A stretch of 64,000 nucleotides of DNA from an uncultured Clostridia bacterium (GCA_934476075.1 CAKSNH010000013.1:1-64000), one strand, 5' to 3'. Numbered from the stretch's first letter, positions 1-21,089 are shown. The notes: generated by a model not told the origin, from the letters alone. A program made the numbers and translations.

Positions 1-179
1 TTTGCCGTAATATTTTGTTATGAGTTTATCTCGTAACAAAATATTGCGGAATGTAACACATCTATTGTAAACCTACATTTTTTTGTTTAATCAAAGTATA
101 TTATCGGTTGACTTATTGCATTATATAATATAAAATAGTTTTATGGTGCTTTTTGCAGAACAAGGGACGGAGGTATACT

Positions 180-1184: not shown

Positions 1185-1204
1185 AAAGGACAGCATATTA
1201 CAAA

Positions 1205-1864: not shown

Positions 1865-1886
1865 CACACTGCGGAAAGGATAAAAT

Positions 1887-2594: not shown

Positions 2595-2977
2595 ATGAGT
2601 TTATTTGTAATTAATGAATTTTATTATAATTTAATATGAAATTTAGTCGAACTGTTTTTCTTCACATTTGGGAATTTTATGATATAATTGTGAATGTAAG
2701 GCAGTTCGATTTTGTATGTAATGAAATATTCATACAATAAAAACAAGCAGATTGTGTGTCCGAAAAACACACCCCCAACAACTGCATTTTTTATAGTACC
2801 CCCAAGCACTATAAAGACAGCCTTACACCTTCCACCACCAAAAGTTGCTTTGGCAGAGTAGTTAAAATGTATAATCGGGTATGACAGTTGCTCCGACATC
2901 AGTATTATACAAATTCATCACAGACTATTGCATCAATCTCTGCCAAAAGCAGCCCATAAACAAGGAGGAATAACATT

Positions 2978-3784: not shown

Positions 3785-3812
3785 TAAAGGTGCTGCAAAA
3801 ACAGCACCTTTA

Positions 3813-4055
3813 TTAAATTTCAAGACCGTCAAAAAAGTCATCAAACGAACAGTTATATATTTCTTTCAGAGCAAGAATTACACTGATTTTGATGTTTAGT
3901 TCTCCGGCTTCGTATTTTGCATATGTGCTTCTGCCGATGTCGCAGCCGTAGAGCTGTAATTCGGCACACAGCTTTTCCTGTGAAAAATTATTGTCAAATC
4001 TTAATTTTCTTAAATTGTCACCGATATTTCGGTCACGTCTTAGTTTTTGTTCCAT
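3813..4055 (-). CDS. XRE-family helix-turn-helix transcriptional regulator.
   Basis: HTH_XRE signature (IGDNLRKLRFDNNFSQEKLCAELQ...STYAKYEAG). Confidence 0.6.
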   Translation of the reverse strand: MEQKLRRDRNIGDNLRKLRFDNNFSQEKLCAELQLYGCDIGRSTYAKYEAGELNIKISVILALKEIYNCSFDDFFDGLEI

Positions 4056-4294
4056 TAATCTTCTTCAATATCAACCAATTTATACATAGGTATGTTTAAA
4101 ACCTCTGCTATGACAAAAAGAGTTTTAAGCGAAGGGCAAAAATAACTGTTAGGACCTTCAAGCTGTGAAATATATCCTGCCGATAAATTGCAGCTTTCGG
4201 CAAGTTCCTCCTGCGTCATACCGCTTAGCTTGCGGTAGTATGCAATTTTAAGACCTATTTTGATTAAATTCATTTTGTATTGGCTTTCTAACAT
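4055..4294 (-). CDS. XRE-family helix-turn-helix transcriptional regulator, tandem with the previous one.
   Basis: HTH_XRE signature (IGLKIAYYRKLSGMTQEELAE...SQLE). Confidence 0.6.
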   Translation of the reverse strand: MLESQYKMNLIKIGLKIAYYRKLSGMTQEELAESCNLSAGYISQLEGPNSYFCPSLKTLFVIAEVLNIPMYKLVDIEED

Positions 4295-4312
4295 ACTATT
4301 CCTCCGTGCTGA

Positions 4313-5920
4313 TTATTGCATATTCTTTTTCATTTCCAAATATTCATCATAACTGCACATTCTGTCGATTATACCGTCGGGAGTTATCTCGATAATACGG
4401 TTTGCGATAGTCTGTATAAATTCATGGTCGTGCGAGGCGAATATAATATTGCCGGCAAAGCTTTCCAAGCCTTTGTTTACGGCTGTGATAGATTCAAGGT
4501 CAAGATGGTTTGTAGGCTGGTCGAGCAGCAGCACGTTTGAACCGTATACCATCATTCTCGAAAGCATACATCTTACCTTTTCACCGCCCGAAAGCACGTT
4601 TACTTCCTTAAACACATCATCGCCCGAGAACAACATTCTGCCCAGAAAACCACGAATATAAGACTCGTTTTGGGTGTCGAAACCGTCGGGAGTGTATTGC
4701 CTTAGCCAATCAATCAGATTTAGCTTGCACCCGTCAAAATATTTCGTATTGTCCTTAGGGAAGTAGCTTTGACTTGTGCTCACACCCCATTTGTAGCTGC
4801 CTGAATCGGGTTCGGCATTGCCCGAAAGAATTTCAAAAAGCATGGTAACCGCAAGTTCATTTTCGCCGATAATTGCGATTTTGTCATTTTTGTTGACGGT
4901 AAAGGTTATGTCGTTAAGCAAAAGCTGTCCGTCCTGTGATTTGGTAAGCGAGTTTACAAACAAAATGTCTTTGCCCGCCTCTCTGTCCATGGTAAATCCG
5001 ACAAACGGATATTTTCTGCTTGACGCCGGCATTTCCTCAACCGTGATTTTTTCAAGCATTTTCTTTCTTGAAGTAGCCTGTTTTGACTTTGATTTATTTG
5101 CCGAGAAACGCTGAATAAAGTTTTGCAGTTCGCTGATACGTTCTTCCGCTTTCTTGTTTTGCTGTTTCATCATTCTTTCGATAAGCTGACTCGATTCATA
5201 CCAGAACTCGTAGTTGCCGACATACATTTTAATTTTTGTATAGTCAATATCGACTATATGCGTACATACCGTGTTAAGGAAATGACGGTCATGCGATACA
5301 ACTATTATCGTACCTTCGTAGTCAAGAATAAAGTCTTCAAGCCATTCGATAGCCTGTATGTCAAGGTGGTTTGTAGGCTCGTCAAGAAGGATAATGTCGG
5401 GATTTCCGAAAAGAGCCTGTGCAAGCAGTATTTTCACCTTTTCATTGCCTGTAAGCGATGACATTTCTTGATATAAAATTGATTCGTCCAAACCAAGTCC
5501 CTGTACAAGTCTTGATGCGTTCGATTCGGCCTCCCAGCCATCAAGCTCGGCAAACTCAGCCTCTAAGTCGGCGGCACGAATACCGTCCTCATCGGAAAAA
5601 TCCTCTTTTGCATACAATGCGTCTTTTTCCTTCATAATATCATACAGGTGCTTGTTGCCGATTATTATTGTGTCAAGCACGGTGTAGCTGTCGTATGCGA
5701 AATGGTCCTGTTTTAGGACGGACATTCTTGTGTTTTCGCTGATTGATACTTCACCGGTCGTGGAGTCAAGCTCGCCCGAAAGTATTTTTAAAAATGTGGA
5801 TTTGCCCGCACCGTTCGCACCGATAACCCCGTAGCAATTACCCGGTGTAAATTTAAGGTTTACGTTTGAGAACAGATTTGTTCCGCTGAAATTTAAACTT
5901 AGATTTGTAACTGTTATCAC
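4313..5920 (-). CDS. ABC-F family ATPase (two fused ABC domains, no TMD). Subtype undetermined: translation factor-like or ARE-type. Start is the GTG at 5920 (MITVTNLSLNF) after AGGAGA.
   Basis: Two Walker A motifs (GANGAGKST and a second NBD), two ABC signature and Walker B regions, and a charged interdomain linker. Confidence 0.8.
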   Translation of the reverse strand: MITVTNLSLNFSGTNLFSNVNLKFTPGNCYGVIGANGAGKSTFLKILSGELDSTTGEVSISENTRMSVLKQDHFAYDSYTVLDTIIIGNKHLYDIMKEKDALYAKEDFSDEDGIRAADLEAEFAELDGWEAESNASRLVQGLGLDESILYQEMSSLTGNEKVKILLAQALFGNPDIILLDEPTNHLDIQAIEWLEDFILDYEGTIIVVSHDRHFLNTVCTHIVDIDYTKIKMYVGNYEFWYESSQLIERMMKQQNKKAEERISELQNFIQRFSANKSKSKQATSRKKMLEKITVEEMPASSRKYPFVGFTMDREAGKDILFVNSLTKSQDGQLLLNDITFTVNKNDKIAIIGENELAVTMLFEILSGNAEPDSGSYKWGVSTSQSYFPKDNTKYFDGCKLNLIDWLRQYTPDGFDTQNESYIRGFLGRMLFSGDDVFKEVNVLSGGEKVRCMLSRMMVYGSNVLLLDQPTNHLDLESITAVNKGLESFAGNIIFASHDHEFIQTIANRIIEITPDGIIDRMCSYDEYLEMKKNMQ

Positions 5921-6733: not shown

Positions 6734-8335
6734 TTATTTTTCCTGTGCATACAGTGCCGCAAAATTAAGAAGCTGCTTTTTTGAGGAAACACCGAGTTTG
6801 CTGTAAATATTGCCGTTATGATATTTAAGTGTACTCTCTTTAACTTCTGCAATCTGTAAAATTTCAGGAACGGTTTTTCCGGCCAGATAGAGGTCAAATA
6901 TTGTTTTCTCCTTGGGAGTAAGGCTGCGTATACCCGAACAGAAATGATTATAATCATCCTGTACGATGATATTTTTATGCTCTTTCATTAGACGCTTGTT
7001 TTCGGTTTTGATACGTTTAATCTCGCTTTGCAGACTTTCGTTTTTTTCGGAATGCTCGTCGAAGATTTTTTGATATTCATTATCCTTTCCGGCAAGAAAT
7101 GCAAAAAGGTCGTCAATTTCCATGATACCGCTTTGACTTTCGTCAGAATATGCCTTTTCGGATTGTTTTATTTTGTCAAGCGATTTTTTTATCGGAAGGA
7201 TAAATCGTTTTGAAAAATACAGGCTAAGGCTTAAAACAGCAAACCCCAAAATCAGAATTATGAGTATAAGCTGCATGGTGTTTTTCGTTTCCAATCCGGA
7301 ATAATCCGCATACGGCATCATAACCGTGACCGAATAAGGCGTGTTTTCGGAATAAAGAGTGGTGTTTCTTGTCATGCCGACATATGCACCGTATTCGTTT
7401 TTCAAAGTGGCAAGACCCTTTTTCATAGGCTTAATTTTTAGGGAATTCTTAGGTGCAAGAAAATATCCGTTTTTTGCTCCGCAGCTTAATCCCTCTTTGA
7501 TATTAATTTCTTTATCGTCCGAGCGGGAGAATACGCAAGTTATGTGCGGAAGTGTGGACGGCTGTGCGTGCACGGATTTAAAAACGCTTTCGTTCACTTC
7601 AAAACCGCAGATGCCGTAAACACGGCCGCCATCGCCCCTGATAGGAAGAGCAATAAGCATAACTCGCTCCGACGTTCCGGGAAGTGTTATAATATTGCAG
7701 ATGTGAGCGGCTTTTTCAATCGGCTCGGAAGTATCCGAAAAAACTTCTTCAAAATTCGGAAATACCTCGGCATCAAATTCCAAATGCCATTTACGGTGAG
7801 GCATAATACCTTTGTTTATTGCAGCCTTCACATTTCCCCTGTAAAGAAGCATTGTTTCCTTGTCGGTTGTTTCAAATATGTCCCGGTTAAGATATACGCC
7901 TGCTTTTGAACCGCTTGCACCGGTTTGAGATGCGTTAATCAGAATAAAAGCACCGGAACAGCTTGCATTTAAAAGTTCGTTCTTCAATAAATCAATATAG
8001 CGTTCTTCAAGAGCATTGATATGCAAAGAAGAATTTTGAACGTCGCCGAAATCTGTATTTTCTGAATTAAGATATTGCTCTGTAAGCTGTGCGGCTTTTT
8101 CGGAAAGCTGTGCGCCACGCAAGGTAATATCATTATAGTAAGACGCCATTTCACGGTCAAAAAACTCAATCTGAAGGCTTAATATATCCGATATTTTATC
8201 CGCAGTTGTCGAAAAACGTCCGAACAGGAAGAGAAAAGCCGCAAATATAAGCAATAAAACAATAGCTAGGATAAACATATATCCAAACAGCTTTTTTTGC
8301 ATAGATTGTTTTTTGTTTCTTACCGATATTTGCAT
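6734..8335 (-). CDS. Membrane-anchored LuxR-family (GerE-type HTH) one-component regulator with a large extracytoplasmic sensor domain.
   Basis: TM1 near the N-terminus, a ~300-aa extracytoplasmic region, TM2, a cytoplasmic coiled-coil and a C-terminal LuxR HTH (LTPKEKTIFDLYLAGKTVPEILQIAEVKESTLKYHNGNIYSKLGVSSKKQL). The preferred start is MQISV at 8335, with RBS ACGGGGGA. Confidence 0.65.
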   Translation of the reverse strand: MQISVRNKKQSMQKKLFGYMFILAIVLLLIFAAFLFLFGRFSTTADKISDILSLQIEFFDREMASYYNDITLRGAQLSEKAAQLTEQYLNSENTDFGDVQNSSLHINALEERYIDLLKNELLNASCSGAFILINASQTGASGSKAGVYLNRDIFETTDKETMLLYRGNVKAAINKGIMPHRKWHLEFDAEVFPNFEEVFSDTSEPIEKAAHICNIITLPGTSERVMLIALPIRGDGGRVYGICGFEVNESVFKSVHAQPSTLPHITCVFSRSDDKEINIKEGLSCGAKNGYFLAPKNSLKIKPMKKGLATLKNEYGAYVGMTRNTTLYSENTPYSVTVMMPYADYSGLETKNTMQLILIILILGFAVLSLSLYFSKRFILPIKKSLDKIKQSEKAYSDESQSGIMEIDDLFAFLAGKDNEYQKIFDEHSEKNESLQSEIKRIKTENKRLMKEHKNIIVQDDYNHFCSGIRSLTPKEKTIFDLYLAGKTVPEILQIAEVKESTLKYHNGNIYSKLGVSSKKQLLNFAALYAQEK

Positions 8336-8348
8336 AACAATCCCCCGT

Positions 8349-9671
8349 CTATTTTTCGCAGAGCTTTTGCCACAGTCCCTCAGCAAGTGCTTCGGGAGGC
8401 GTGTTGCTTAATATAAATTGTTTCTGTTCGTTTCTTAAATAATCGTAAAATGCGTAAACTCTGCTGTAATATTCGGGATTTTGCTGTTCTGACAAAACCT
8501 CCGAGCTTTCCTTAACTTTTTTTAGAGTTGCATAGAGTTTTTCATAATCGGTTGTCTTGAAACGGTAGTCGCCTATTTTGTCAAACGCACCGTTTGTAAC
8601 CGGCATATAACCTGTTTGGCATACGAACTCAAGATTTCTTTTCGGTTCGGTAAGCCATTTGGCAAAAATCGCTGACGCTTCTGCTTTTTGAGTTGTTGTT
8701 TTATATGAACAAAGTCCAACTCCGGCTTGCGTAATATACGGTTTTTTGCCATTTTCCGATGGAACAGGCAGTATCTCCAAATTCATCGGCTCACTTGTCC
8801 CGTCCTCATATGTCACGGTATTGTTATAGTAAAGAATTGCGGCGGACGAGCCTATCCCTGCCACAACCTCACCTGTCATAACCTGCGTGTTAGAATAGAG
8901 GTTTGAAAGCATAATATGTCCTTTTGCAAACGAATCCGCAAATTTCATAAATGTCTGCTTAAATATCACGTTAGAAGTGTCATAAAATCCGTTGTCGGCA
9001 AAAATGTTCTCTACGCCATTTTCCGCAGCTGCAAGCTCAACGGCACGGAGCGGATAATCAAGAGCACAGAACGGTTTTCCGCCCGACCAGTCATAATATT
9101 TCGCAGCAGCGTCAAAAAAACCGTTCCAGTCGGAAAGGGATTCATATGTAACGCCCGTATCGGCTGAAAAACGTTCAAATTGACCCCCGGCGATAAATAA
9201 AAGATGCGTGGATTTGGACACAGGAAACACAGCTAACCTTCCGTCTGCCGTGCCGTCCTCCAAAAACTCGGGAACATATGAAGAAAGCTCTTTTTCGGAA
9301 AAATATTCGTTCCAGTCAATTAAATTATCCGTTCCAAGTTCCAGTGCGTTGCTTTTGTGTGCAAAGAAAAGGTCGGGCATTTCGGCGGAGCCGGGAATTT
9401 TTTTTTGTGCGTCAAGCAGCTTTTCGCCTATTTTGGAGGCGTTGGACATTGCCGTGACGTTGATGATAATGCCTTTTTCCATGCCAACTGTCTCGTTGAA
9501 TTCGTCAATAAGCCGATTCATAGGCGAATCCGCCTGTTCTCCGTAAACGTGCCACATTGTAAGCGTAACGGGTTTGTTTTTATCAAGTTCCGATTTTTTG
9601 CAGCCCGAAAAGCAACAAAGCGAAACAGCTAATATGAGTAAAAGCGAAAAAATTTTTCTTATTTGCCACAT
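8349..9671 (-). CDS. Extracellular solute-binding lipoprotein (ABC-type SBP family 1-like, sugar-type). No permease or ATPase genes adjacent.
   Basis: Lipoprotein signal peptide LLLILAVSLCCFSGC and an SBP-like fold pattern. It sits immediately upstream of, and in the same orientation as, the membrane LuxR regulator, with a 13-bp gap. Confidence 0.65.
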   Translation of the reverse strand: MWQIRKIFSLLLILAVSLCCFSGCKKSELDKNKPVTLTMWHVYGEQADSPMNRLIDEFNETVGMEKGIIINVTAMSNASKIGEKLLDAQKKIPGSAEMPDLFFAHKSNALELGTDNLIDWNEYFSEKELSSYVPEFLEDGTADGRLAVFPVSKSTHLLFIAGGQFERFSADTGVTYESLSDWNGFFDAAAKYYDWSGGKPFCALDYPLRAVELAAAENGVENIFADNGFYDTSNVIFKQTFMKFADSFAKGHIMLSNLYSNTQVMTGEVVAGIGSSAAILYYNNTVTYEDGTSEPMNLEILPVPSENGKKPYITQAGVGLCSYKTTTQKAEASAIFAKWLTEPKRNLEFVCQTGYMPVTNGAFDKIGDYRFKTTDYEKLYATLKKVKESSEVLSEQQNPEYYSRVYAFYDYLRNEQKQFILSNTPPEALAEGLWQKLCEK

Positions 9672-10286: not shown

Positions 10287-10670
10287 ATGATAAATGAGAA
10301 GCATAAAACGGCTGCGTACAAAATTATTCCGTCACAGGGCGGAAACCGTTACAGCTTTTTCTGCGAATTGTCAGGAATGCTTGTCTGTACCACAGGAACG
10401 TATTATGCAGACGATTCTGAGGCAGAGCTTTTGGCGGCATGGGAAGCGGAGGGCAAGAAAAATTTTAATTTATGCCATTTGTGCGGCAGATGGATTGATT
10501 CGATTGTATATAATCCGGATATGCTTATGTGCGTGAATTGTGCTCCTCTTGAGGAAGAAGTAAAGTATTGCAAGCACTGCGGTGCAAAAGCAAACAACGA
10601 AGATACAATTTGTTTTGTATGCGGCAAAAAACTATTATATGGAGGAGTTGATGACAGTGACGAGATATAG
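10287..10670 (+). CDS. Small double zinc-ribbon protein (127 aa), cytoplasmic.
   Basis: CxxC pairs: CHLCGRW...CVNCAP and CKHCGAK...CFVCGKK. No signal peptide. First gene of a three-gene coupled operon. Confidence 0.5.
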   Translation: MINEKHKTAAYKIIPSQGGNRYSFFCELSGMLVCTTGTYYADDSEAELLAAWEAEGKKNFNLCHLCGRWIDSIVYNPDMLMCVNCAPLEEEVKYCKHCGAKANNEDTICFVCGKKLLYGGVDDSDEI

Positions 10671-10941
10671 ACCGTTAAGAAAAGATGTTTTGGAGTATTT
10701 CGGTTTTGGTACTAAAAATATGAAAAGGCTTAAAATCTGCCGGTGCTGCGGAAATGTACAGACTGCAAAAAACAAGTTTTGCAAAGCTTGTCAGACAAAA
10801 CTGCCGGAGGAAACAGTTTTTGATATTTACAAAGCAAAGCATCGTTGTTGCACCAAATGCGAAAATGTTCTCCCTAATGATGCGGAGTATTGTCCCATTT
10901 GTGGAACAAAGCAAAACAATAAAGAAAGAGAGGCGATATGA
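10639..10941 (+). CDS. Small double zinc-ribbon protein (~100 aa).
   Basis: CRCCGNV...CKACQTK and CTKCENV...CPICGTK. Its start overlaps the stop of the upstream gene, and its stop overlaps the ATG of the downstream giant gene (ATGA). Confidence 0.5.
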   Translation: MEELMTVTRYRPLRKDVLEYFGFGTKNMKRLKICRCCGNVQTAKNKFCKACQTKLPEETVFDIYKAKHRCCTKCENVLPNDAEYCPICGTKQNNKEREAI

Positions 10942-13900
10942 ATATGAAGAAGTTTTTATCACTGTGTATGGTATTTATTATGTTGATGACGTTTTTGCCG
11001 TTTACGGCATTTGCGGACTATTCCGACGGTCAGAACTGCGGAAGCTGCGGGCACTACCACTGGGACAGCTATTGCTGCGGAAACTGCGGCCGCTGTACGG
11101 AGGATTGCAGAAGCGACTGTTTTGAAATCACTCATTGCCAAAGCTGCGGAGAATGTTTTGCCGATATGAGCGAAAACGAATACTGCACCGAATGCTGGAA
11201 TTGTATAGAATGCGGCGAAAACGAGCACTGCAAATATTGCGGAGAGTGCGGCAGGGATATTTGCAGCGACTGTCATATCTGCGAAGACTGCCGACAGACG
11301 AACGGCGCTATCTGCCAGTACTGCGATGCCTGTCTGACTTGTCTTTACGGCGAGGGAGAACTTGATGAGGAGGATATGTGCAAGACCTGTCGTGCAACTC
11401 TTGCCTGCTGTCTGTCTATCGTTTGCCAGGAATGTCTGTCCTCCTGCAATCAATGTAAATCCATAGACGAATTCTGCACAAGTTGCGAAAGGTGCGTAGA
11501 CTGTGTCACGGATAATATCATCTGCATGGAATGTGGCAAGTGTAAGGACTGCTGGGGGGGAGACCACTGTACGGAATGTAACAGCTGTGAATATGAATAC
11601 CACGGTGCCTGCGAAATGTGCGATAATTGCGCCGAAAAAGACGACAGAATCTGCGAAAGCTGCGGCAGCTGCGGTTTTTGCAGCGACTGGGAGCCAAGCG
11701 CTATTTGCCCCAACTGCAACGCTTGTCCGGAAGAATATGACAGACGCTGCGAGGACGGGGAACACTGCAATCTTTGCTGGGAGTGGATTTGTGAAAACTG
11801 TAATCAGTGCAGCCACGAAGGCAACATACTGTGTTCGGATTGCGGAGATTACTGCAGCTCGTGTGAAAATTTCTGCTACGACTGTGAGAAATGCGAGGAA
11901 TGTTGCCGTAATACCAGCGAAGAAAACGGCTGCTATCACGGTATATGCGTGGAAAGCAGTGACTGGGACGATTATTCTCACCGCTGTCAATCCTGCGGAA
12001 ATTGCTTTGAGGAAGATGAGATGTGCGACGATTGCAGTCTTTGCGCAGAGTGCTGTCTTAACGAAAGCCAAGGGAATGGCTGTGAGCACGGCATATGCGT
12101 TGAAAGTGCAGACTGGGATGCAGAGGGTCACCGTTGCAGCAGCTGCGGTGAATGTTTTGAAGAAAACGAATTCTGCCCCGACTGCGGATACTGTCTGGAT
12201 TGCTGTTTGAACAATGCCGACTTTGCCGGATGCGTCCACGGTGTCTGCATTGAGAGTAATGAATGGCTAAATCATTTTTGCGACCTGCATGATGGCTGTG
12301 TGGAGGTTTTGTGTGACACCTGCGGCGGCTGTGCCGGCTGCTGCGATAAAATGCGTGCACAGGAAAATTGTACGCACACGCACGTTTGCCCGGGCTCATC
12401 GGGCTGGAGCAAGCATTTCTGCAAAACGTGCAATAAGTGCTTTGCACCTGACGAGATGTGCCAATACTGCGGCAAGTGCCTTGTCTGCTGCAAGTCGGCA
12501 ACGCCTTGCTCCTGCGGCAATGATATATGTCCGAGCGACCCGAAATGGCTCGACCATTATTGCACATCGCACGAAACCTGTTTCTCGAAATGTGCTCACG
12601 GTGCACATACGCATACGCCGGGAAGCACCTATGTGCAGGAGGACGCCAACAGGCATTATCAGACCTGTACCATTTGCGGTATAGCGATGAACCGAAACAG
12701 ACACAGATTAGGAGAAGGGGTTCGTGAAAACTTTTCCGAAGTTTTTGGAAAGCCTACCGCAATCATGCGTTTTACCTGCCTTGACTGCGGATACTCTGAG
12801 AGAAAGATGAGCTCGGTTTCGTCTGCCTGCGTAAACGGAACGTGCGAAGGCAGTGAAGTACTGGCTTATGACACAACGCATCATTGGAGGCAATGCAGCC
12901 TTTGCGGTGACGTAAAAGTCAGCACAAAAACAACGCACGATTTCTCGAAGAACCCCTATGCCTGCGGCGCTTTGAACTGTTATTATAAGAAAATTACCGC
13001 ACCGGCAATAGATACGGTCGGAGGCAAAGAACTTGAATGGGACTATGTTACCTATGTTGACGGCAAAGAAAAATATTACGCTGCGGACGAATTTACGGCG
13101 ATATTCGGTGAAAAACTGGTAATTCCGTATACGCTGTTAAGCGGCGAAAACGTAAAAATGTCGATTATCGACCCCGAAACGGGGATAAAGATAAATCCAC
13201 AACAGAGCACGCCATTTTGGAATATGTATGCCCAGCAACTGGTAACCTATACCAAAGACAGCGTTGTTTTGGATTTACAGGAGCCGCAGTGCCAACGTCT
13301 GTTTAAACACTTGTACGGTCAGTGCGGCAGATATGAATTTATCCTGCGTGCACATAACGAGCTTGGAGATTATGAGGCATACTACAACAGCAACGTGCGG
13401 TTCTTTATCAACCTGCCGCACGAAACGGATGAGTGGCAGATGAATGAAACGCAACACTGGAAGATTTGCTCCAATTCTGATTGCCCCGACGGCGGCAAGC
13501 GTGTGAATATCGGTGCACATGACTGGCGCCACGGCGATTCCTGCGTTGCTTGCGGAAAAATCCGTCCCGTGCGTATCACCTGGCAGACAACCGACCCGAA
13601 GCCGACTTACCGTCACGGACGTGATGACGAAAACTTCGTTAAACTCTCAGTCAAGGCACGAGGCAATAATCTTACTTATCAGTGGTACGGTGCTTATTAC
13701 GATTCTAACGGAGATGTTAAGATATTTAATATCAGTGACATAACGGACGACCCCGTAAACGGTCATGCGGGAACAAAAACCGATACGCTGACCGTTGGAC
13801 TGTATGACGCAATGTGCGGCGAGGTTTTGCAATATGAGGATGAATTTATGTATGTCTGCGTTGTTACCGGCGACGGCGGTACTGTGCAGTCCAAGCCGAT

Positions 13901-14891
13901 TCGCATTACTCCTCAGCACGACACCTCGTCTTACGAATACAGAAATAATTCGATATATACAAACAATCAGACAGACCAACATATGGTAATATGCAAAAAC
14001 TGCCACGAAGAATTTTATATGAAGCCGCACACACCTGGGTATTGGAAAACCACCAAGGAACCTACGGTTGACGATGAGGGCGAGCAGACCTATTACTGTG
14101 CTGACTGTGGCTTAACCAGGCAAAAACAGAAAATTCCCAAACTTGCCGCACCGCATACGCACAACTTCACTGTGGTGGCACATGACGGCATTGCACACTG
14201 GAATACCTGCTCCGATGAAGCTTGCGGACGCTCCGATAACTCCTATGTTCGCCATACATACAGCGACTGGGTGACCGTTACGGCACCAACAATATCTGCG
14301 TCCGGTATTAAGAAACGCATCTGCACGCAAGCCGGCTGCTGGAACGAACAAACCGCACCGATAGCACCGCTGACTCACACCTGCTCCTTTGTCAACAGCT
14401 CATATGTGTATGACGAAACAAGTCACTGGCTGGAATGTGAGAGTTCGGACTGTTCCGAAAAGCTCCGCGTGATACCGCACCGTTATAATCAGATGGTATT
14501 TCCTAAGAAACCTACTCTGACAGAGGAAGGAATCGGTCATCATAGCTGTGCCGTATGCCTTTACGAAGAGGACGTAACGCTTCAGAAGATTACCGAAGAA
14601 CCCGTCTTGCAGCTGTTTGAAAAAAACGGTGAATATTGCATACACGCTTCCAACGGCGGAATTTCTGCCTATGTTTGGATAGCAAGCTATAAAAACGGGC
14701 AGATGATTGATGTGAAAAGAGAAGTTATCCGCCAAATAGATATGCCGGTACTTGACGCTTCTGTCGACACCCTTGAACTGAATATTTTGGAGGCGGATGA
14801 GATTAGGGCGTTTATGTTCAGCTATGATAAGCAGATAAAGCCTCTTTTGCCTGCGGCAAGACTGAAAATAACAATTACAGAGGACATTTGA
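10938..14891 (+). CDS. Giant secreted, extremely cysteine-rich repeat protein (1317 aa). The N-terminal ~530 aa are a dense array of CxxC/CxC knuckles. The C-terminal ~790 aa contain repeated HxW-C...C modules interspersed with beta-rich segments.
   Basis: Signal peptide MNMKKFLSLCMVFIMLMTFLPFTAFA. Roughly one residue in four to five is Cys across the first ~100 mature residues (e.g. NCGSCGHYHWDSYCCGNCGRCTEDCRSDCFEITHCQSCGECF...). There are three consecutive ~45-aa modules GC[YEV]HG[IV]C[VI]ES.DW...C.[SD]CG.CFEE.E.C.DC..C..CC. Translationally coupled to two zinc-ribbon genes. Confidence 0.7.
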   Translation: MNMKKFLSLCMVFIMLMTFLPFTAFADYSDGQNCGSCGHYHWDSYCCGNCGRCTEDCRSDCFEITHCQSCGECFADMSENEYCTECWNCIECGENEHCKYCGECGRDICSDCHICEDCRQTNGAICQYCDACLTCLYGEGELDEEDMCKTCRATLACCLSIVCQECLSSCNQCKSIDEFCTSCERCVDCVTDNIICMECGKCKDCWGGDHCTECNSCEYEYHGACEMCDNCAEKDDRICESCGSCGFCSDWEPSAICPNCNACPEEYDRRCEDGEHCNLCWEWICENCNQCSHEGNILCSDCGDYCSSCENFCYDCEKCEECCRNTSEENGCYHGICVESSDWDDYSHRCQSCGNCFEEDEMCDDCSLCAECCLNESQGNGCEHGICVESADWDAEGHRCSSCGECFEENEFCPDCGYCLDCCLNNADFAGCVHGVCIESNEWLNHFCDLHDGCVEVLCDTCGGCAGCCDKMRAQENCTHTHVCPGSSGWSKHFCKTCNKCFAPDEMCQYCGKCLVCCKSATPCSCGNDICPSDPKWLDHYCTSHETCFSKCAHGAHTHTPGSTYVQEDANRHYQTCTICGIAMNRNRHRLGEGVRENFSEVFGKPTAIMRFTCLDCGYSERKMSSVSSACVNGTCEGSEVLAYDTTHHWRQCSLCGDVKVSTKTTHDFSKNPYACGALNCYYKKITAPAIDTVGGKELEWDYVTYVDGKEKYYAADEFTAIFGEKLVIPYTLLSGENVKMSIIDPETGIKINPQQSTPFWNMYAQQLVTYTKDSVVLDLQEPQCQRLFKHLYGQCGRYEFILRAHNELGDYEAYYNSNVRFFINLPHETDEWQMNETQHWKICSNSDCPDGGKRVNIGAHDWRHGDSCVACGKIRPVRITWQTTDPKPTYRHGRDDENFVKLSVKARGNNLTYQWYGAYYDSNGDVKIFNISDITDDPVNGHAGTKTDTLTVGLYDAMCGEVLQYEDEFMYVCVVTGDGGTVQSKPIRITPQHDTSSYEYRNNSIYTNNQTDQHMVICKNCHEEFYMKPHTPGYWKTTKEPTVDDEGEQTYYCADCGLTRQKQKIPKLAAPHTHNFTVVAHDGIAHWNTCSDEACGRSDNSYVRHTYSDWVTVTAPTISASGIKKRICTQAGCWNEQTAPIAPLTHTCSFVNSSYVYDETSHWLECESSDCSEKLRVIPHRYNQMVFPKKPTLTEEGIGHHSCAVCLYEEDVTLQKITEEPVLQLFEKNGEYCIHASNGGISAYVWIASYKNGQMIDVKREVIRQIDMPVLDASVDTLELNILEADEIRAFMFSYDKQIKPLLPAARLKITITEDI

Positions 14892-15239: not shown

Positions 15240-16319
15240 ATGGAAACAGTACAAAACTATAAGTGTCCTTGCTGCGGTGCTTCGCTGATTTTTCGGAATG
15301 AGGCGCTGCACTGCGATTCTTGTGGAAATGATTTTGAACTTGACGCCATGCAGCAAATTGACGATGCCGGAGCACAAATGCAGGGTGAATCAAAATATGA
15401 CTGGGAGCATTACGAACCGAGAAGTTATGAAGCAGACGGAGAGATTGAACTCGCAAGCTATACCTGTCCCTCCTGTGGTGCGGAAATAACCGGTGACGAT
15501 ACAATGGGGTCAACCGTTTGTCCATACTGTGGCGATGCAGCGGTGATTAAGGGACAGTTTGAAGGTGCTCTCCGACCTGACTATATTATTCCGTTTAAGA
15601 CAGATAAGAAGGCGGCAATGGAGGCATTTGAGGCAGATTTCAAAAATGCACCGTTCCTACCGGATGAATTTAAGGTTAAAAAGAAAATAGAAGAAATGGT
15701 GGGTGTTTATGTGCCGTTTTGGATGTTTGACTGCGATTGCAGTGCGGCAATAACTTACGGTGCACAAATAGTTGCAAGTTGGAGTGATTCCAATTATCAT
15801 TATACCAAAACAGATTATTACAGACTTTTCAGAAGCGGCAGTGTGGGTTTTGCCAACATTCCTGTTGACGGCTCAAAAAAAGCGGATGACGCATATATGG
15901 AGGCGGTAGAACCTTTTTGTTATGATGATGCAGTGGAGTTTAACGGTGCATATCTTTCGGGGTATATGGCGGATAAATATGATGTTTCGGTAGAGGAAAG
16001 CATAGAGCGAGCGAACGAACGTGTAAAAAATTCAACGGTTTCGGTATTTAAGGAAACGACGAGCGGTTACACTGCGGTGATTCCCGAAAGTACAAAAATC
16101 AGTTTTTCAGACGGTAAAATAAGGTATTCCCTGCTCCCGGTTTGGATGCTCAATATTAAATATATGAACAATACATATAAGTTTGCTATCAACGGACAGA
16201 CCGGTAAGGTTGTCGGTGAATACCCTATTGATAACAGAAAAAAATGGAGATATTTTGCGAAAATTGCCGGCTTTGCTTATATAGCAGCGGCAGTTATAGC
16301 ATATTTCTTGCTGCATTAG
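15240..16319 (+). CDS. Double zinc-ribbon protein with a C-terminal TM anchor. Resembles the B. subtilis YdjG-like partner of the TPM/SPFH stress module.
   Basis: CPCCGAS...CDSCGND and CPSCGAE...CPYCGD ribbons, then a ~250-aa domain and a terminal hydrophobic helix (FAKIAGFAYIAAAVIAYFLL). RBS AAGGGAG. Confidence 0.55.
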   Translation: METVQNYKCPCCGASLIFRNEALHCDSCGNDFELDAMQQIDDAGAQMQGESKYDWEHYEPRSYEADGEIELASYTCPSCGAEITGDDTMGSTVCPYCGDAAVIKGQFEGALRPDYIIPFKTDKKAAMEAFEADFKNAPFLPDEFKVKKKIEEMVGVYVPFWMFDCDCSAAITYGAQIVASWSDSNYHYTKTDYYRLFRSGSVGFANIPVDGSKKADDAYMEAVEPFCYDDAVEFNGAYLSGYMADKYDVSVEESIERANERVKNSTVSVFKETTSGYTAVIPESTKISFSDGKIRYSLLPVWMLNIKYMNNTYKFAINGQTGKVVGEYPIDNRKKWRYFAKIAGFAYIAAAVIAYFLLH

Positions 16320-16330
16320 GAGGGAGCAAA

Positions 16331-17107
16331 ATGAAAAGAATTGTTACAATCATGATTGGCTTTCTCTGCTTTGTATTGACAATTACCGTATATGCGGATT
16401 TTAACAAACCTACGATTACGGATTCGGTCGGATACCTGACAGAGGAACAGAATAAAGAACTGTCGGCAAGGCTTGATAAAATTCGTGAACAATATAGTTT
16501 TGACATCGCATTTGTTTCAGAGGATAGATTATCTGCCTATGACGCACAAACGTCAGCAGACGACATTTACGATTATAATGGCTACGGCTACGGTGAAAAT
16601 TATGACGGAATACTTTTTTATATAGCAGATTCCGAAAGAGAATATCATTTTACCGTCTGCGGCAGCGGTGAAACGATATTTAACGAAAACGGTCTTGCCT
16701 ATCTGGAAAAAAATATTGTTCCGTATTTGAAGAAAGACAATTATTATGCTGCGGTCAAATCATACGCCAATCATACGGAAGAACTTTTGGAGATGGCAGC
16801 AGATGGCAAGCCATTCAACAAAACTCAGCACAGCATGAAGTATATCCTGTGTGTGGTTGCCGGGGGGCTTCTTCTTCCCCTTATTCTTGCATATTTTATG
16901 ATGCACAAAAAGCTCTGTGCAATGAAAACGGCGGTCAAAGAGGATTATGCCGGCAATTATATGAAACCGAACAGTATGAATCTTGACTTTTCAAGGGATA
17001 TATTCCTTTACAGCACCGTGACAAAAACGGAAAAACCGAAATCGGATTCCGGAAGCCATACATCGTCTTCCGGCAGAAGTCACGGCGGAAGAGGCGGAAG
17101 TTTTTAA
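16331..17107 (+). CDS. TPM-domain (TLP18.3/Psb32/MOLO-1, DUF477) membrane protein, YdjH/YgcG-like.
   Basis: Signal/TM segment, then the TPM motif VGYLTEEQNKELSARLDKIREQYSFDIAFV, a C-terminal TM and a Gly/Ser/Arg-rich tail (SSGRSHGGRGGSF). Confidence 0.65.
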   Translation: MKRIVTIMIGFLCFVLTITVYADFNKPTITDSVGYLTEEQNKELSARLDKIREQYSFDIAFVSEDRLSAYDAQTSADDIYDYNGYGYGENYDGILFYIADSEREYHFTVCGSGETIFNENGLAYLEKNIVPYLKKDNYYAAVKSYANHTEELLEMAADGKPFNKTQHSMKYILCVVAGGLLLPLILAYFMMHKKLCAMKTAVKEDYAGNYMKPNSMNLDFSRDIFLYSTVTKTEKPKSDSGSHTSSSGRSHGGRGGSF

Positions 17108-17133
17108 TAAAAAAATTTAAGGAGGAAAAAAAT

Positions 17134-18012
17134 ATGGGACTTGGTGATTTTTTCAAGAACATTTTCGGCAAAAAGAATTGTGCATTATGCGGAAAGGAAT
17201 GCGGTATGATGCATCGTTCAAAAATCAAGAACAAGGAATTTTTATGTGACGATTGCGGAAATCTATGTTCAAAGTACATTAGGCTGAGCGAGCTGACATT
17301 GGACGAAGTTAAGGGACATATAGAATATATGAAACGGCAGAACAGACTTTTTGAGGAGGTCTATTCCAAAGAAGGAAACAAGGACACATACCCTTCGTCG
17401 CTCAAGGAAATGGGTATTGAATTTTGCGATGATTTGGGGATGTTTCGGATTAAACACAGAAACAACACGGGCAGAGGCAAAATGAACGAGCTTTTCCGCT
17501 ACGACCAGGTGGCAGGCTATGAGGAATACATAGATGAAACACCGTCAACCGAGCCGGGGAAAAAACCTGAATTTAAGGAATGCGGATTAAAAATCAAGCT
17601 TTTGGGCGGAAATATGAGCAAGGTGAATACAGACAACAAAAAAGGTCTTCGTCCTCATCCGTATATCAAGCAAGAACTTAAAATCTGTTTCAGCAAAAAC
17701 AATCGTTCGGACGCACAGTATGCACATAATGCAAAATGCAAGTTTGATTATATTTTCGGTGTTCATGATGATGAAAGAGGTTTGTTCGGCTTTGGCAGAA
17801 GTAATGCAGAAAAAAGAGAGGATGCGGCAGCGATTGGAATGGCGGCGGCATTCGGAACGGCTTTTAAGGCTGCAACAAAAGGAGAGGAAGCCATAACGGA
17901 GGCGGACAAAGAAAAATTGAAGGAAGGCATAAATGCTATGAATGACGCAGCGACCGGCGGTATGGCGGTTTACACAAGACGTGCGGACGATGCGGAAGCC
18001 AAAATAAAGTAA
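17134..18012 (+). CDS. Hypothetical zinc-ribbon protein (292 aa).
   Basis: N-terminal CALCGKEC...CDDCGNLC ribbon. The N-terminus MGLGDFFKNIFG resembles that of the downstream SPFH-like gene. Ala-rich C-terminus. RBS AAGGAGG. Confidence 0.45.
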   Translation: MGLGDFFKNIFGKKNCALCGKECGMMHRSKIKNKEFLCDDCGNLCSKYIRLSELTLDEVKGHIEYMKRQNRLFEEVYSKEGNKDTYPSSLKEMGIEFCDDLGMFRIKHRNNTGRGKMNELFRYDQVAGYEEYIDETPSTEPGKKPEFKECGLKIKLLGGNMSKVNTDNKKGLRPHPYIKQELKICFSKNNRSDAQYAHNAKCKFDYIFGVHDDERGLFGFGRSNAEKREDAAAIGMAAAFGTAFKAATKGEEAITEADKEKLKEGINAMNDAATGGMAVYTRRADDAEAKIK

Positions 18013-18027
18013 CGGGAGGTGCAAAAC

Positions 18028-19212
18028 GTGAAAAAACTATCATTATTGCTTGCAATATTGCTGATTTTAAACGTCACTGTTGTCTGTGCGGAATGGGAAA
18101 CATTCAAATCGGCGGACGGTATGTATGAATACACAAATGATGGAGTAATTACCGCTTATTACGGTGATGAATTTGCCTTTTTTCCGGAAGAAATAGACGG
18201 AACAAAAATCAATGAAATCGGCGTTATGGCTTGTTTTGACTTAGGAATTAAATTCATATCCTTTGCCGAAGGAATTGAATTGATAAACACAAATGCTTTT
18301 GAAGGCTGCAATGCCGAAAGTGCATATATTCCGTCAAGTGTGAAAAATATTGGTGAGCGTGCTTTTGCAAACTGTGCAAATCTTAATGAGGTTACATTGA
18401 ATTCAGAGGAAATAACATTTGATTTTGATGTGTTTATCGGAACCGGATTTATAAAGTTTTATATCCCGTGCACGGCAGATAAGGATGTGATGTACGAAAA
18501 AATATTCAATGCAAAGGGTGATGGGAATTTTAGTTTTTCACTTATGCACACTGCGATTGTTGAAAGTATGACGGAAAAGGATATTTTCGGTGAGAACATG
18601 ATATACTGCGAGAACTGCGGTTTTAAAGGAAGTAGATATTTGGAGGATACATCTCTGCCGTTTGCGGACGTATCGCAGGACGCATGGTACTATTCTTATG
18701 TACAGATGGCGTACAGCTTCGGCATCATAAACGGGAAAAATGAAATGGAATTTGACCCGAATGCAGGGCTTACCTGTGCGGAGGCAGCCAAAATTGCCGC
18801 AGTAATTCACAATAAAAGCCAATACGAAAGAGAGGAAGTTGAATTCCAAATGACCGGTGAAAACTGGTATGATGTTTATGTGGATTATTGCTATGACAAT
18901 GCAATAATTGAAGATTATATCATCTTTGATTGGGAGAAAAACGCAACGCGTGCACAGATGGCATATCTGTTTTCAAGGTGCGACGTCAATCCGTATTTTA
19001 TAAACGATGTCCCGATAACCGATATTCCGGACGTTTATGACACAACGCCCTTCGCATATGAAATTTTGGATCTTTACAATAAGGGAGTCGCAGTGGGAGG
19101 CAATGAATACATGGCATTTTATCCGGATTCACAGGTTAAACGGAGCGAAGCAGCAGCACTGATTTCGAGAATTCTTTGCTATGATATGAGAATTGAATTG
19201 CCGAAAGGGTGA
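18028..19212 (+). CDS. Cell-surface protein with BspA-type leucine-rich repeats and C-terminal SLH-like repeats.
   Basis: Signal peptide. LRR_5-type units (INTNAFEGCNAESAYIPSSVKNIGERAFANCANLNEVTL). SLH-like segments (FADVSQDAWYYSYVQMAYSFGIINGKNEMEFDP; FINDVPITDIPDVYDTTPFAYEILDLYNKGVAVG). The start is alternatively the GTG at 18019. Confidence 0.6.
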   Translation: MKKLSLLLAILLILNVTVVCAEWETFKSADGMYEYTNDGVITAYYGDEFAFFPEEIDGTKINEIGVMACFDLGIKFISFAEGIELINTNAFEGCNAESAYIPSSVKNIGERAFANCANLNEVTLNSEEITFDFDVFIGTGFIKFYIPCTADKDVMYEKIFNAKGDGNFSFSLMHTAIVESMTEKDIFGENMIYCENCGFKGSRYLEDTSLPFADVSQDAWYYSYVQMAYSFGIINGKNEMEFDPNAGLTCAEAAKIAAVIHNKSQYEREEVEFQMTGENWYDVYVDYCYDNAIIEDYIIFDWEKNATRAQMAYLFSRCDVNPYFINDVPITDIPDVYDTTPFAYEILDLYNKGVAVGGNEYMAFYPDSQVKRSEAAALISRILCYDMRIELPKG

Positions 19213-19757
19213 TTAAGGTGAGGCTGATGAAAGTAATTGCGATATTTACGATTATTGCCGGTCTTTTCGGATGCAAGGCTCCCGGAGAAAAACCTTTTAT
19301 GCTGGACGGACCGGGCATGGTGTATGTCGACAGTGAGCATCGCACAGAATACGCAAATACTCTTCCGTTCGATGAAATTGATGATTATCCTTATTGGGCG
19401 GTCGCATATTTCGGAGAGGGAGATGAGGGTGAAAAAGCAGCAAAGGAATATGTAGAAAAACTTTTTTCAGAACTTTCAGAGGAAAAACGCCGAGCAATAG
19501 GGCATTACGATTACGGCAGAGAAAAATGGTATCTTGTTATTCCACGGTACGGAGAGGAAAACGAGTTGATTCAAAACGGCGATAAGAAAAATTTGCAAAA
19601 AGTACATGACGGTACACCGTATATAATAAACTGCGGCGGCGATGTTGAATTTTATATCTCCATGCGTGGCGGACATAAAATCACGCTTGATACAGATGAA
19701 AACGGCAGACTGATATGTACACCCGATATATGGGATATAACAGAGTATAAAAAATAA
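19209..19757 (+). CDS. Hypothetical lipoprotein. An alternative ATG start lies at 19227.
   Basis: Lipobox AIFTIIAGLFGC. The GTG start overlaps the upstream stop (GTGA). Confidence 0.5.
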   Translation: MIKVRLMKVIAIFTIIAGLFGCKAPGEKPFMLDGPGMVYVDSEHRTEYANTLPFDEIDDYPYWAVAYFGEGDEGEKAAKEYVEKLFSELSEEKRRAIGHYDYGREKWYLVIPRYGEENELIQNGDKKNLQKVHDGTPYIINCGGDVEFYISMRGGHKITLDTDENGRLICTPDIWDITEYKK

Positions 19758-19781
19758 AATAATTGAGAGGAGAACATAATT

Positions 19782-21089
19782 ATGGGACTTTTAAAAGCAG
19801 GTGCAGGGGCGTTCGGCGGTGTTTTAGCTGACCAGTGGAGAGAATTTTTCTACTGCGAAAGCTTGGATGCCGACACACTTGTGGCAAAAGGCGAAAAACG
19901 AGTGGGAAAAAGAAGCTCCAACAAAAAGGGAGATGACAACATTATTTCAAACGGTTCAATCATTTCAATAAATGAGGGACAGAGCATGATTATCGTGGAA
20001 TCGGGCAAAATTGTTGAATTTTGTGCCGAGGCCGGAGAGTTTGTCTACGATAATTCCACCGAACCGAGTATTTTCTGTGGCAGCTTAGGCGAAAGCATTA
20101 AGCAAAGCTTTGTACAGGTAGGCAAGCGTTTTACTTTCGGCGGTGAACCCGGTAAGGACCAGAGGGTTTATTATTTTAACACAAAGGAAATAACGGGAAA
20201 TAAATTCGGCACGTCTTCACCGGTACCATTTAGGGTAACGATAGATGAAACTATGAACTATAAGCTGTCGGTGGATTTAAGATGTAATGGTGTGTATTCC
20301 TATAAAATAGTTGATCCTGTGATGTTTTATACGAATGTAAGCGGTAATGTCGAATATGTATACAGCCGTTCGGAAATTGATGAAATGTTAAAGAGTGAGC
20401 TTTTGGATGCTCTCAGACCGGCATTTGCACAGATTTCGGCAATGAAAATAATGTATTCAGAAATACCGGCACATACAAAAGAGGTTACAAAGGCTCTTTC
20501 CGAGGAGCTTAAAGCCGAGTGGAGAGAAAAGCGTGGAATTGAGCTTTTCGCCGTAAGCATTAACGGTGTATCTATTCCTGAGGAACAGAGAAAGAAGATT
20601 ACCGAGTGGGAGGAAAACATTATGACAACCAACCCGAATATTGCGGCGGCACGTATTGTCGGCGGGCAGACAGACGCTATGAGAACGGCTGCGGCAAATG
20701 CAGGCGGAATGGGTGCAATGGGCGGCTTTTTCGGAATGAATATGGCACAGAATGCAGGCGGTATGAATGCAGGCAATCTTTTTGCGATGGGTCAGCAGCA
20801 GACACAGCAGCCGCAAGCGGCAGGCTGGAGCTGTGAATGCGGGCAAACCGGAAATGCGGGCAAATTCTGTATGAATTGCGGAAAGCCGCAACAGGTATCG
20901 GACGGCTGGACTTGCTCGTGCGGAACGGTCAACAAGGGTAGGTTCTGCCAGAACTGCGGTAATCCAAAGCCTGTGGGCACACCAACCTATAAATGCGACA
21001 AATGCGGCTGGGAGCCTGAGAATCCCCAAAATCCACCGAAATTCTGCCCTGAATGCGGCGACATATTTGATGATAATGATAAACAGTAA
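19782..21089 (+). CDS. SPFH/band-7-like protein of the YdjI / virion-core-protein-like (COG4260-like) family, with a low-complexity Gly/Met/Ala/Gln linker and a C-terminal triple zinc-ribbon.
   Basis: N-terminus MGLLKAGAGAFGGVLADQWREFFYC typical of this family. C-terminus WSCECGQ...CMNCGKP, WTCSCGT...CQNCGNP and YKCDKCGW...CPECGD. RBS GAGAGGAGAA. Confidence 0.5.
   Translation: MGLLKAGAGAFGGVLADQWREFFYCESLDADTLVAKGEKRVGKRSSNKKGDDNIISNGSIISINEGQSMIIVESGKIVEFCAEAGEFVYDNSTEPSIFCGSLGESIKQSFVQVGKRFTFGGEPGKDQRVYYFNTKEITGNKFGTSSPVPFRVTIDETMNYKLSVDLRCNGVYSYKIVDPVMFYTNVSGNVEYVYSRSEIDEMLKSELLDALRPAFAQISAMKIMYSEIPAHTKEVTKALSEELKAEWREKRGIELFAVSINGVSIPEEQRKKITEWEENIMTTNPNIAAARIVGGQTDAMRTAAANAGGMGAMGGFFGMNMAQNAGGMNAGNLFAMGQQQTQQPQAAGWSCECGQTGNAGKFCMNCGKPQQVSDGWTCSCGTVNKGRFCQNCGNPKPVGTPTYKCDKCGWEPENPQNPPKFCPECGDIFDDNDKQ

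Follow-up and report, generated by a model that had tools for sequence, protein, structure and literature searches.

The closest described counterparts of the protein reported here are two small domains in the immunoglobulin A (IgA) protease of Thomasclavelia ramosa. The Gomis-Ruth group described them in this enzyme (Protein Data Bank (PDB) sequence 9qa6_A) as two domains for zinc binding (ZBD1 and ZBD2), each elongated and stacked from three-stranded sheets, with H2C2 zinc sites predicted where the sheets meet, which stand in the order ZBD-Ig-like-ZBD with an immunoglobulin (Ig)-like barrel between them; the protease carries 24 cysteines and no disulfides were found in it (PMC12237041). Tran, Frenette and Holyoak named the same domains CTD2 and CTD4, metal-associated periscope (stalk) domains that form a stalk in which the role of zinc appears to be purely structural (PMC12415215). 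Here we analysed a stretch of 64,000 nucleotides from an uncultured human-gut Clostridia bacterium (GCA_934476075.1 CAKSNH010000013.1:1-64000; hereafter the window), in which a single open reading frame of 1317 codons encodes a secreted protein built from two kinds of Cys/His repeat. Its C-terminal modules are new members of the kind described in 2025, its N-terminal units form a Cys/His repeat that is rare and had not been described, and the protein as a whole extends the idea of a structural-zinc extracellular stalk.

The reading that we consider probable is that of a Sec-secreted, disulfide-free extracellular rod stapled by structural zinc. If it is true, strict anaerobes build long extracellular scaffolds from structural zinc sites rather than from disulfides or hydrophobic cores, a principle hinted at only in 2025 by the two small domains of the gut IgA protease. 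The window protein would carry this idea to an entire protein of 1300 residues and would add another kind of module, unrelated to the first, whose fold is predicted with confidence and has no neighbour among solved structures. Residues 331-523 would then be a compact target for metal stoichiometry and for what is probably a new zinc-binding fold.

Tandem Cys/His units of the N-terminal half

The protein contains 148 cysteines (11% of its residues) and 67 CxxC motifs. Cysteines are found at about 11 per 50 residues through residue 560 and at 0-4 per 50 residues thereafter, and residues 27-560 hold 115 Cys and 24 His. This Cys-rich half is acidic (isoelectric point (pI) 4.3) and only 13-16% of its residues are hydrophobic. 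The N-terminus reads MNMKKFLSLCMVFIMLMTFLPFTAFA/DYSDG, a Sec-type signal peptide with a signal-peptidase site at AFA/DY, a KK n-region and no twin-arginine motif. Searches of Pfam and NCBIfam with the whole protein returned 0 families, even at E <= 10, and nothing above threshold was found when six sub-pieces were added; the sole name given to proteins of this family in any source is "hypothetical protein".

Full-length orthologues with 87, 81, 80, 46 and 29% identity (BLASTP) were found in uncultured human-gut Clostridia metagenome-assembled genomes (MAGs), including those from Hadza samples, UMGS1494 and the complete MAG CP091729. The conservation counts below are over six orthologues, whose identity with the window protein is 35-87% in our alignment (A1) and 29-87% by BLASTP. 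In residues 331-560 all 45 of 45 cysteines are identical in the six, down to about 30% identity, and in residues 27-330 the figure is 64 of 70, while Cys and His replace one another at six positions. Full-length orthologues in which nearly all cysteines are unchanged show that this is a real gene under selection.

A preliminary description of this DNA, covering 11890-14600 (residues 318-1221), had reported three consecutive units of about 45 residues followed by further degenerate copies, and another recurring module in the C-terminal half. The tandem repeats are there, in other numbers: a profile of the unit finds four full copies (331-379, 381-429, 431-476 and 477-523; 69-77 bits each) and one copy of its first half (526-550), with a period of 46-50 residues, and this layout of 4.5 units recurs in every orthologue. 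What had been taken for degenerate copies are units 4 and 5, the former a full copy and the latter a half unit which closes the Cys-rich region; an equivalent terminal half unit is seen in distant family members. In unit 3, a His replaces the third Cys of the first CxxC group (CDLHDGC), and H451 is Cys in two orthologues. Unit boundaries are conserved in the orthologues together with the ligands, and a unit-by-unit comparison found positional orthology of units 3 and 4. Upstream of, and continuous with, the region of the preliminary description lies a simpler array of CxxC-type knuckles (residues 27-330; Table 1), which the unit profile matched only weakly and with its second half alone, and for which Pfam gave no match at E <= 10.

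When fragments were compared with the whole protein by BLAST, residues 321-377 matched residues 371-427 with 65% identity over 57 residues, a period of 50, and weaker copies appeared downstream; whole-protein self-BLAST gave the identity match alone. Pairwise Smith-Waterman scores set against 1000 composition-preserving shuffles gave z = 21.6 for unit 1 against unit 2, 8-12 for the other pairs of units 1-4 and 2-6 for half unit 5. A search for tandem repeats at the DNA level found none that was relevant, the repeats being visible at the protein level alone. Unit 1 agrees with unit 2 at 60% of its DNA positions and at 40% of third codon positions, and the duplications are therefore old.

Searched with HMMER against 1.84 billion cluster representatives, the unit profile recovered 105 proteins at E <= 1e-3, nearly all of them 1000-3600 residues long with an N-terminal signal peptide of similar start and 5-18% Cys. 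In-register tandem units number 1 to 5 or more per protein and as a rule lie near residues 200-560, directly after a CxxC-rich N-terminal region. The window protein shows the full set of family features, namely C2, C7, H16, C18, C34 and C40 in tandem units that follow a CxxC region in a secreted protein. Some relatives with 222 Cys have the first half of one unit alone, at the end of the Cys-rich region.

Ligand statistics were taken over 247 distinct units of this family. The consensus is C-x-[H/C/D/E]-x2-C-x5-[W/Y/F]-x2-H-x-C-x2-C-x2-C-x6-C-x2-C-x2-C-x2-C-C, corresponding in the aligned units to C2, position 4, C7, aromatic 13, H16, C18, C21, C24, C31, C34, C37, C40 and C41, with 11-12 conserved Cys/His per unit. 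C2, C7, C18, C34 and C40 are Cys in at least 99.6% of the units and His16 is present in 245 of 247 (99%). Position 4 is H in 110, C in 72, D in 24 and E in 22 units, all of them typical zinc ligands, and C21 is occasionally His or Asp. Of 53 junctions at which the terminal CC lacks its second Cys, 49 lead into a unit that starts with His; of 201 at which this Cys is present, 0 do so (Fisher p = 4e-48, with kinship ignored). The invariant His, the interchange of H, C, D and E and the Cys-His swap at junctions cannot be accounted for by disulfide pairing, and these sequence statistics strongly indicate that the N-terminal units carry metal sites instead, in keeping with the metal-ligand character that the preliminary description had attributed to them. 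The 11-12 ligands per unit would fit about three tetrahedral Zn(Cys/His)4 sites. The swap further suggests that one site is common to consecutive units, which would lock the array as a continuous rod, and on this pattern one metal site probably spans the junction of neighbouring units.

We modelled residues 318-565 with AlphaFold2 from a 31-sequence family alignment, at a mean pLDDT (predicted local distance difference test) of 85.7. The model shows short beta bridges and, in each unit, a 10-residue terminal helix that sets in right behind the third Cys of the closing CxxCxxCxxCC run and takes in the CC pair, as in a zinc-knuckle fold. The best Foldseek match of the unit model had an E-value of only 0.4; its weak neighbours were mostly RING, U-box, RBR, FYVE, LIM and PHD zinc domains, with some disulfide-rich repeats of low-density lipoprotein (LDL) receptor/megalin. 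A PDB sequence search with the unit profile found nothing significant (best E = 0.19), and the unit had no significant Pfam, NCBIfam or PDB match. Cross-brace and treble-clef fingers (RING, U-box-like, FYVE, PHD, LIM, RBR/IBR) resemble the units in having short CxxC knuckles followed by a ligand-supplying helix, and 2-3 sites in about 50 residues, but the units are extracellular and tandem, apparently share sites at junctions and lack Pfam membership. Judged from the model, the units resemble zinc knuckles locally, yet they are in no described family, and a literature search on CxxC-rich secreted Clostridia proteins found nothing on them.

Several known folds were tried and rejected. The comparison with treble-clef, rubredoxin and B-box folds that had been proposed yielded no membership, and neither for these nor for RING was there a significant superposition on a solved member. 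The Pfam zinc-ribbon families Zn_ribbon_3, DZR_2 and Zn_Ribbon_TF, scanned against pieces of the protein, reached at best 14-18 bits against gathering cut-offs of 27-29.

C-terminal modules homologous to IgA protease domains

The module of the C-terminal half had been written as H.W..C..C. It does recur, six times, with the pattern shifted by one residue: the true motif is H-W-x2-C-x2-4-C-x8-12-H, and it is the first half alone of a composite module of about 65 residues. In the form H-x3-C-x2-4-C-x8-12-H the motif starts at residues 573, 649, 840, 1015, 1087 and 1163; 5000 shuffles average 0.025 occurrences and never exceed 1. Three clean copies (1010-1076, 1082-1148 and 1158-1219; mutual z = 6-11) add a W-x6-PT-x4-G-x5-CxxC-x~15-H ribbon and so make up the 65-residue (S+L) modules, and the three upstream copies (knuckles 1-3) are shortened or degenerate. 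Knuckle 1 is modelled with low confidence (pLDDT 46-70), and the S+L profile matches this stretch in the orthologues P0001-P0005, not in the window protein. In the six orthologues, the four knuckle ligands of copies 1, 2, 4 and 5, the ribbon ligands C1054, C1057, H1073 and H1075 of copy 4, and H1163, C1167 and H1181 of copy 6 are all invariant. Profiles and shuffle statistics thus confirm both module types and with them the two-tier repeat organisation claimed earlier. A profile-profile comparison found no relation between the N-terminal units and the C-terminal modules (probability of a common origin 1%).

A profile of the ribbon matched the IgA protease sequence 9qa6_A at E = 2.3e-11, and the C-terminal profile of the family, with the window protein as its first row, did so at E = 1.1e-17 over residues 902-975 and 1065-1143, which are ZBD1 and ZBD2. 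Both profiles align to it across HW..C..CG...H..W...T...G...C..CG. A window fragment used alone as query did not reach 9qa6_A, and a homologue search with the C-terminal fragment returned near-identical fragments alone. Given the profile homology, we assign the C-terminal modules to the kind of domain that ZBD1 and ZBD2 represent. Like these, they run from HW..C..C...H to W...T...G...CxxC...H, and the two-His, two-Cys ligand sets of the ZBD kind are conserved in them. The order of zinc module, Ig-like beta domain and zinc module is the same in the two proteins, both of which are extracellular proteins of gut Firmicutes whose anchor side is C-terminal. Unlike the IgA protease, the window protein has no protease or other catalytic domain, has six knuckles as opposed to five sites, reads PTV, PTI or PTL in several ribbons where others have ATC with an additional Cys, and possesses N-terminal 50-residue units for which the protease has no counterpart. 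The ribbon part alone occurs in up to 15 copies in other Firmicute surface proteins.

An AlphaFold2 model of residues 560-1317 (25 sequences; mean pLDDT 77) is almost all-beta, with only short beta strands in residues 1010-1219 (pLDDT 63-90). The segments between modules had been likened to Ig/adhesin-type spacers, and this is borne out for at least one of them, the domain at about residues 883-995, a beta-sandwich that superposes on I-set Ig domains and is conserved across the family. The beta domain at residues 691-830 is confined to close orthologues and absent in paralogues, and had a weak PKD match (E = 0.11). An 11-residue indel, PQQSTPFWNMY (window 13200-13232, residues 755-765), lies in a loop of this domain and splits relatives that are otherwise at least 80% identical into two groups. 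The C-terminal beta domain of about 98 residues has no Pfam match and is found once in the window protein and twice in relatives of 1388-1405 residues; it may serve in anchoring or interaction.

Table 1. Features of the window protein and its gene, all on the plus strand, with positions counted from the first nucleotide of the window (HMM, hidden Markov model; AF2, AlphaFold2)
Feature	Window	Residues	Strand	Sequence or ligands	Basis
Whole gene, 1317-residue secreted Cys/His-rich protein	10938-14891, stop codon included		+		open reading frame list, translation, full-length orthologues
Sec-type signal peptide	10938-11015	1-26	+	...TAFA/DYSDG	read directly from sequence
CxxCxxC / CxxCxxCxxC knuckle array	11016-11927	27-330	+	70 Cys, pI 4.1	64/70 Cys invariant
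Unit 1	11928-12077	331-380	+	GCYHGICVESSDW..HRCQSCGNCFEEDEMCDDCSLCAECC	unit HMM 77 bits; z = 21.6 against unit 2; pLDDT about 90
Unit 2	12078-12227	381-430	+		self-BLAST, unit HMM, shuffle z-scores, model
Unit 3	12228-12365	431-476	+		unit HMM
Unit 4	12366-12506	477-523	+	NCTHTHVCPGSSGW..HFCKTCNKC...	unit HMM 72 bits; z = 8-12 against units 1-3
Half unit 5	12507-12617	524-560	+	CSCGNDICPSDPKW..HYCTSHETC	first half of profile alone matched
Knuckle 1 and degenerate ribbon	12639-12857	568-640	+	H573 C577 C580 H589; C614 C617	ligands invariant
Knuckle 2 and short ribbon	12867-13007	644-690	+	H649 C653 C656 H667; C676 C681	motif, invariance
Beta-rich Cys-poor domain	13008-13427	about 691-830	+		AF2 mostly strands, pLDDT 57-87 in most blocks
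Knuckle 3 and short ribbon	13440-13583	835-882	+	H840 C844 C849 H861; C869 C872	profile, motif, conservation
Ig-like (I-set type) domain	13584-13922	about 883-995	+	LTYQWY ... YVCVV	model confidence values and motif
S+L module 4	13965-14165	1010-1076	+	H1015 C1019 C1022 H1031; W..PT..G..C1054 C1057..H1073 H1075	profile, ZBD homology
S+L module 5	14181-14381	1082-1148	+	H1087 C1091 C1096 H1106; C1129 C1134 H1147 C1149	z = 10.6 against module 6
S+L module 6	14409-14594	1158-1219	+	H1163 C1167 C1172 H1181; C1204 C1207	profile, motif, conservation
C-terminal beta domain, about 98 residues	14595-14888	1220-1317	+		AF2 strands, pLDDT 80-95

A probable rod of structural zinc sites and rival readings

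In the structural-zinc reading, two unrelated kinds of small module, each held by metal, would make up the body of the protein. The array at residues 331-560 would continue the simpler CxxCxxC...CxxCxxCxxC array of residues 27-330, and sites shared at the junctions would turn the four and a half units into a continuous rod; in residues 568-1219, H2C2-clasped modules of about 65 residues would be interspersed with the Ig-like and the second beta domain. In the anoxic gut, where disulfides would be unreliable, structural zinc would replace both disulfides and hydrophobic cores, and the outcome would be a long, stiff, acidic (pI about 4.3) and probably protease-resistant extracellular rod with about 40 metal sites, some 30 of them in residues 27-560 (as counted from 114 conserved Cys plus the His conserved as C/H there) and some 10 in the C-terminal half. 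What the analysis shows directly is that the repeats exist and are conserved, how their ligands are distributed, that the C-terminal modules are homologous to IgA protease domains and that an Ig fold is present; we infer zinc as the metal, the assignment of ligands to sites, the rigidity of the rod and its role as a stalk.

A more specific version is tentative, and we would sooner doubt than assert it: residues 27-560 could form an undescribed extracellular poly-zinc fold, in which some 30 Zn(Cys/His)4 sites follow one another as a continuous rod, with a metal site common to the units at each junction, and which together with about 10 sites in the modules of IgA protease type would give about 40 metal ions per chain. 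We know of no match for such a number among described bacterial secreted proteins. The array would then be the "business end" that a rare family, specific to Clostridia, conserves while changing its anchors (dockerin, SLH or transmembrane), and it may have a functional tie to the zinc-ribbon and TPM-domain neighbours seen in two subfamilies. Since the array is conserved while the anchors vary, it may be more than a spacer, for instance a ligand- or metal-binding surface.

That the repeats might be chance similarity in low-complexity Cys-rich sequence deserves mention because uncorrected BLAST inflates Cys-Cys matches. With z = 8-22 among units 1-4 against composition-preserving shuffles, they are not a compositional artefact of Cys richness; the unit boundaries and all Cys of the array are conserved in orthologues, and the unit profile is specific to 105 clusters, in each of which at least one and up to 5 or more copies stand in register. 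A chance origin is thus refuted and has next to no probability, and the preliminary description was right to treat these as true repeats rather than low-complexity drift, as the absence of a DNA-level tandem repeat also indicates. Fe-S clusters would be suggested by the CxxCxxC triplets that recur throughout, which could bind them in the manner of a polyferredoxin and conduct electrons outside the cell. We find such a wire highly improbable: the ferredoxin pattern CxxCxxCxxxCP is absent (the spacing here is CxxCxxC(xxC) without Pro) and there is no Fer4 Pfam match, His and Asp/Glu occupy ligand positions, no redox genes are neighbours, and the signal is of the Sec rather than the Tat type, so that a cofactor assembled in the cytoplasm could not leave in a folded protein. 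Metal-free repeats knotted by disulfides, of the epidermal growth factor (EGF), furin-like or Giardia variant surface protein (VSP) CxxC type, are quite unlikely for other reasons. Secretion, 11% Cys, the 67 CxxC motifs and the weak Foldseek matches to LDL-receptor/megalin repeats would be expected of them, but the related IgA protease has no disulfides despite its 24 Cys (PMC12237041), and 99% conservation of a His, a position open to H, C, D or E, and C/H swaps both between orthologues and at junctions cannot be accounted for by disulfide pairing. No EGF, furin-like or VSP Pfam match was obtained even at E <= 10, and the hosts are gut and rumen Clostridia which we take to be strict anaerobes. 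The ligands could instead serve a surface metal sponge whose roughly 40 clusters capture, store or detoxify Zn, Cu, Cd, Ni or Co, as in a metallothionein or zincophore. Their very high density in the acidic residues 27-560, the extension of the Cys-rich array to the very N-terminus without a separate head domain and the fact that this array is the conserved part of a family with variable anchors would all suit this idea. It is nevertheless unlikely in our judgement, since the invariant, rigid ligand spacing and the confident, ordered predicted fold argue for fully coordinated structural rather than exchangeable sites, no metal transporter or regulator is consistently adjacent in the loci examined, and the homologous IgA protease modules have been read as purely structural (PMC12415215).

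Several points weigh against the structural-zinc rod that we prefer. Pfam and NCBIfam scans found no known anchoring domain in the window protein, and there is no separate globular "head" at its N-terminus; the Cys-rich array itself may be the functional part and not a passive stalk. Neither array varies in length among the close relatives examined, unlike in classic periscope proteins. The tetrahedral geometry and the assignment of ligands to sites are only putative, the junction covariation and the column statistics ignore phylogeny, the C41/His swap may go back to only a few events, and the zinc sites of the IgA protease ZBDs are themselves only predicted, "pending experimental validation" (PMC12237041).

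Two other groups of surface proteins invite comparison. The likeness to Giardia VSPs and ciliate surface antigens is one of analogy only: these too are CxxC-dominated proteins outside the cell, come from organisms that live in the gut and contain about 11-12% Cys. They are eukaryotic and presumably form a protease-resistant coat; VSPs have been reported to bind zinc, their cysteines are generally considered disulfide-bonded, and unlike them the window protein has His and acidic residues at ligand positions. No sign of a relationship was seen in the Pfam scans at E <= 10, among whose models that of Giardia VSPs is assumed to be included. Like periscope proteins (SasG/Aap), the window protein would have an elongated repeat-built extracellular architecture that keeps one end off the cell, but periscope proteins consist of G5/E-type beta sheets whereas the window modules are predicted to be stabilised by Cys/His-bound metal. 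Periscope membership was rejected on the repeat number, the variation of which among close relatives defines that group and is missing from the window family in the cluster of at least 90% identity.

Surface anchors, array expansion and gene neighbourhood

About 100 surface proteins from Clostridia of the human gut and the rumen, as yet uncharacterised, make up the family. Their C-termini vary and may be a dockerin, Big_2, SLH or Listeria-Bacteroides repeats, or a transmembrane helix with a basic tail. The preliminary description called the window protein a surface protein; its secretion follows from the signal peptide, surface display is plausible because of the dockerin, SLH and transmembrane anchors of its secreted relatives, and an anchor of its own was not found. 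Because the anchors of the relatives are C-terminal, the Cys-rich end would be distal and the anchor end proximal. Several paralogues of the window protein carry dockerins. Beside the 29%-identical orthologue (locus L018, 10534-12395), genes for a cohesin+SLH anchoring protein and for a dockerin protein are found, an arrangement that suggests cellulosome-style surface display in that lineage.

Expansion by duplication, as had been proposed, holds over evolutionary distances, with 1 to 5 or more units in the family and one N-terminal unit fewer in the 29%-identical orthologue, and fails among close relatives. In 14 members read from the cluster of at least 90% identity, no polymorphism in repeat number was found in either array, and the differences are the 11-residue indel, shortened gene calls and a C-terminal domain that is single in some members and double in others. 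The expansion is therefore ancient and not an active length switch. In three close relatives of the P0001 cluster (P0143, P0148 and P0151, on contigs of 85-173 kb), the called product is just 721-723 residues long and begins near residues 582-584, so that the whole Cys-rich half is missing; an internal start, a frameshift or pseudogene, or an error in the assembly could explain these products.

Two small cytoplasmic double-zinc-ribbon genes lie directly upstream of the gene (window 10287-10941), and its ATG overlaps the stop codon of the second. Downstream (window 15240-21089) follow genes for a 359-residue zinc-ribbon protein, a TPM-domain protein, a DUF4428 protein, an LRR-SLH protein and an SPFH/Band_7_1 protein. 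A scan for promoters and terminators found no above-chance signal that could delimit an operon. We noted a conserved neighbourhood for the window and four further loci (L001, L004, L019 and L020). The gene order of the window recurs beside the 46%-identical orthologue, and genes for a zinc-ribbon protein of about 360 residues and a TPM protein also flank the distant 222-Cys relatives from rumen and other microbiomes. To this zinc-ribbon/TPM core, SPFH and DUF4428 genes are joined in the window, L001 and L004, and two DZR genes are joined in L019, whose 361-residue protein is 45% identical to the 359-residue zinc-ribbon protein of the window. The set is absent beside the dockerin- or SLH-type relatives examined and beside the 29%-identical orthologue, where a cohesin-SLH gene is found instead. 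The neighbourhood may resemble the PspA-associated ydjGHI set of B. subtilis.

In L019, the two zinc-ribbon genes are followed directly by the gene for a different protein, of 952 residues (1499-4357); it too has Cys/His knuckle repeats, GHAHxCxVCG and HWKEC..DC, and is not homologous to the Cys-rich half of the window protein. Divergently upstream in the window (6734-9671, minus strand) are genes for a GerE/LuxR-type regulator of 550 residues and an SBP_bac_8 solute-binding protein; the positions of both are conserved in L001, and the solute-binding protein gene is also found in L019.

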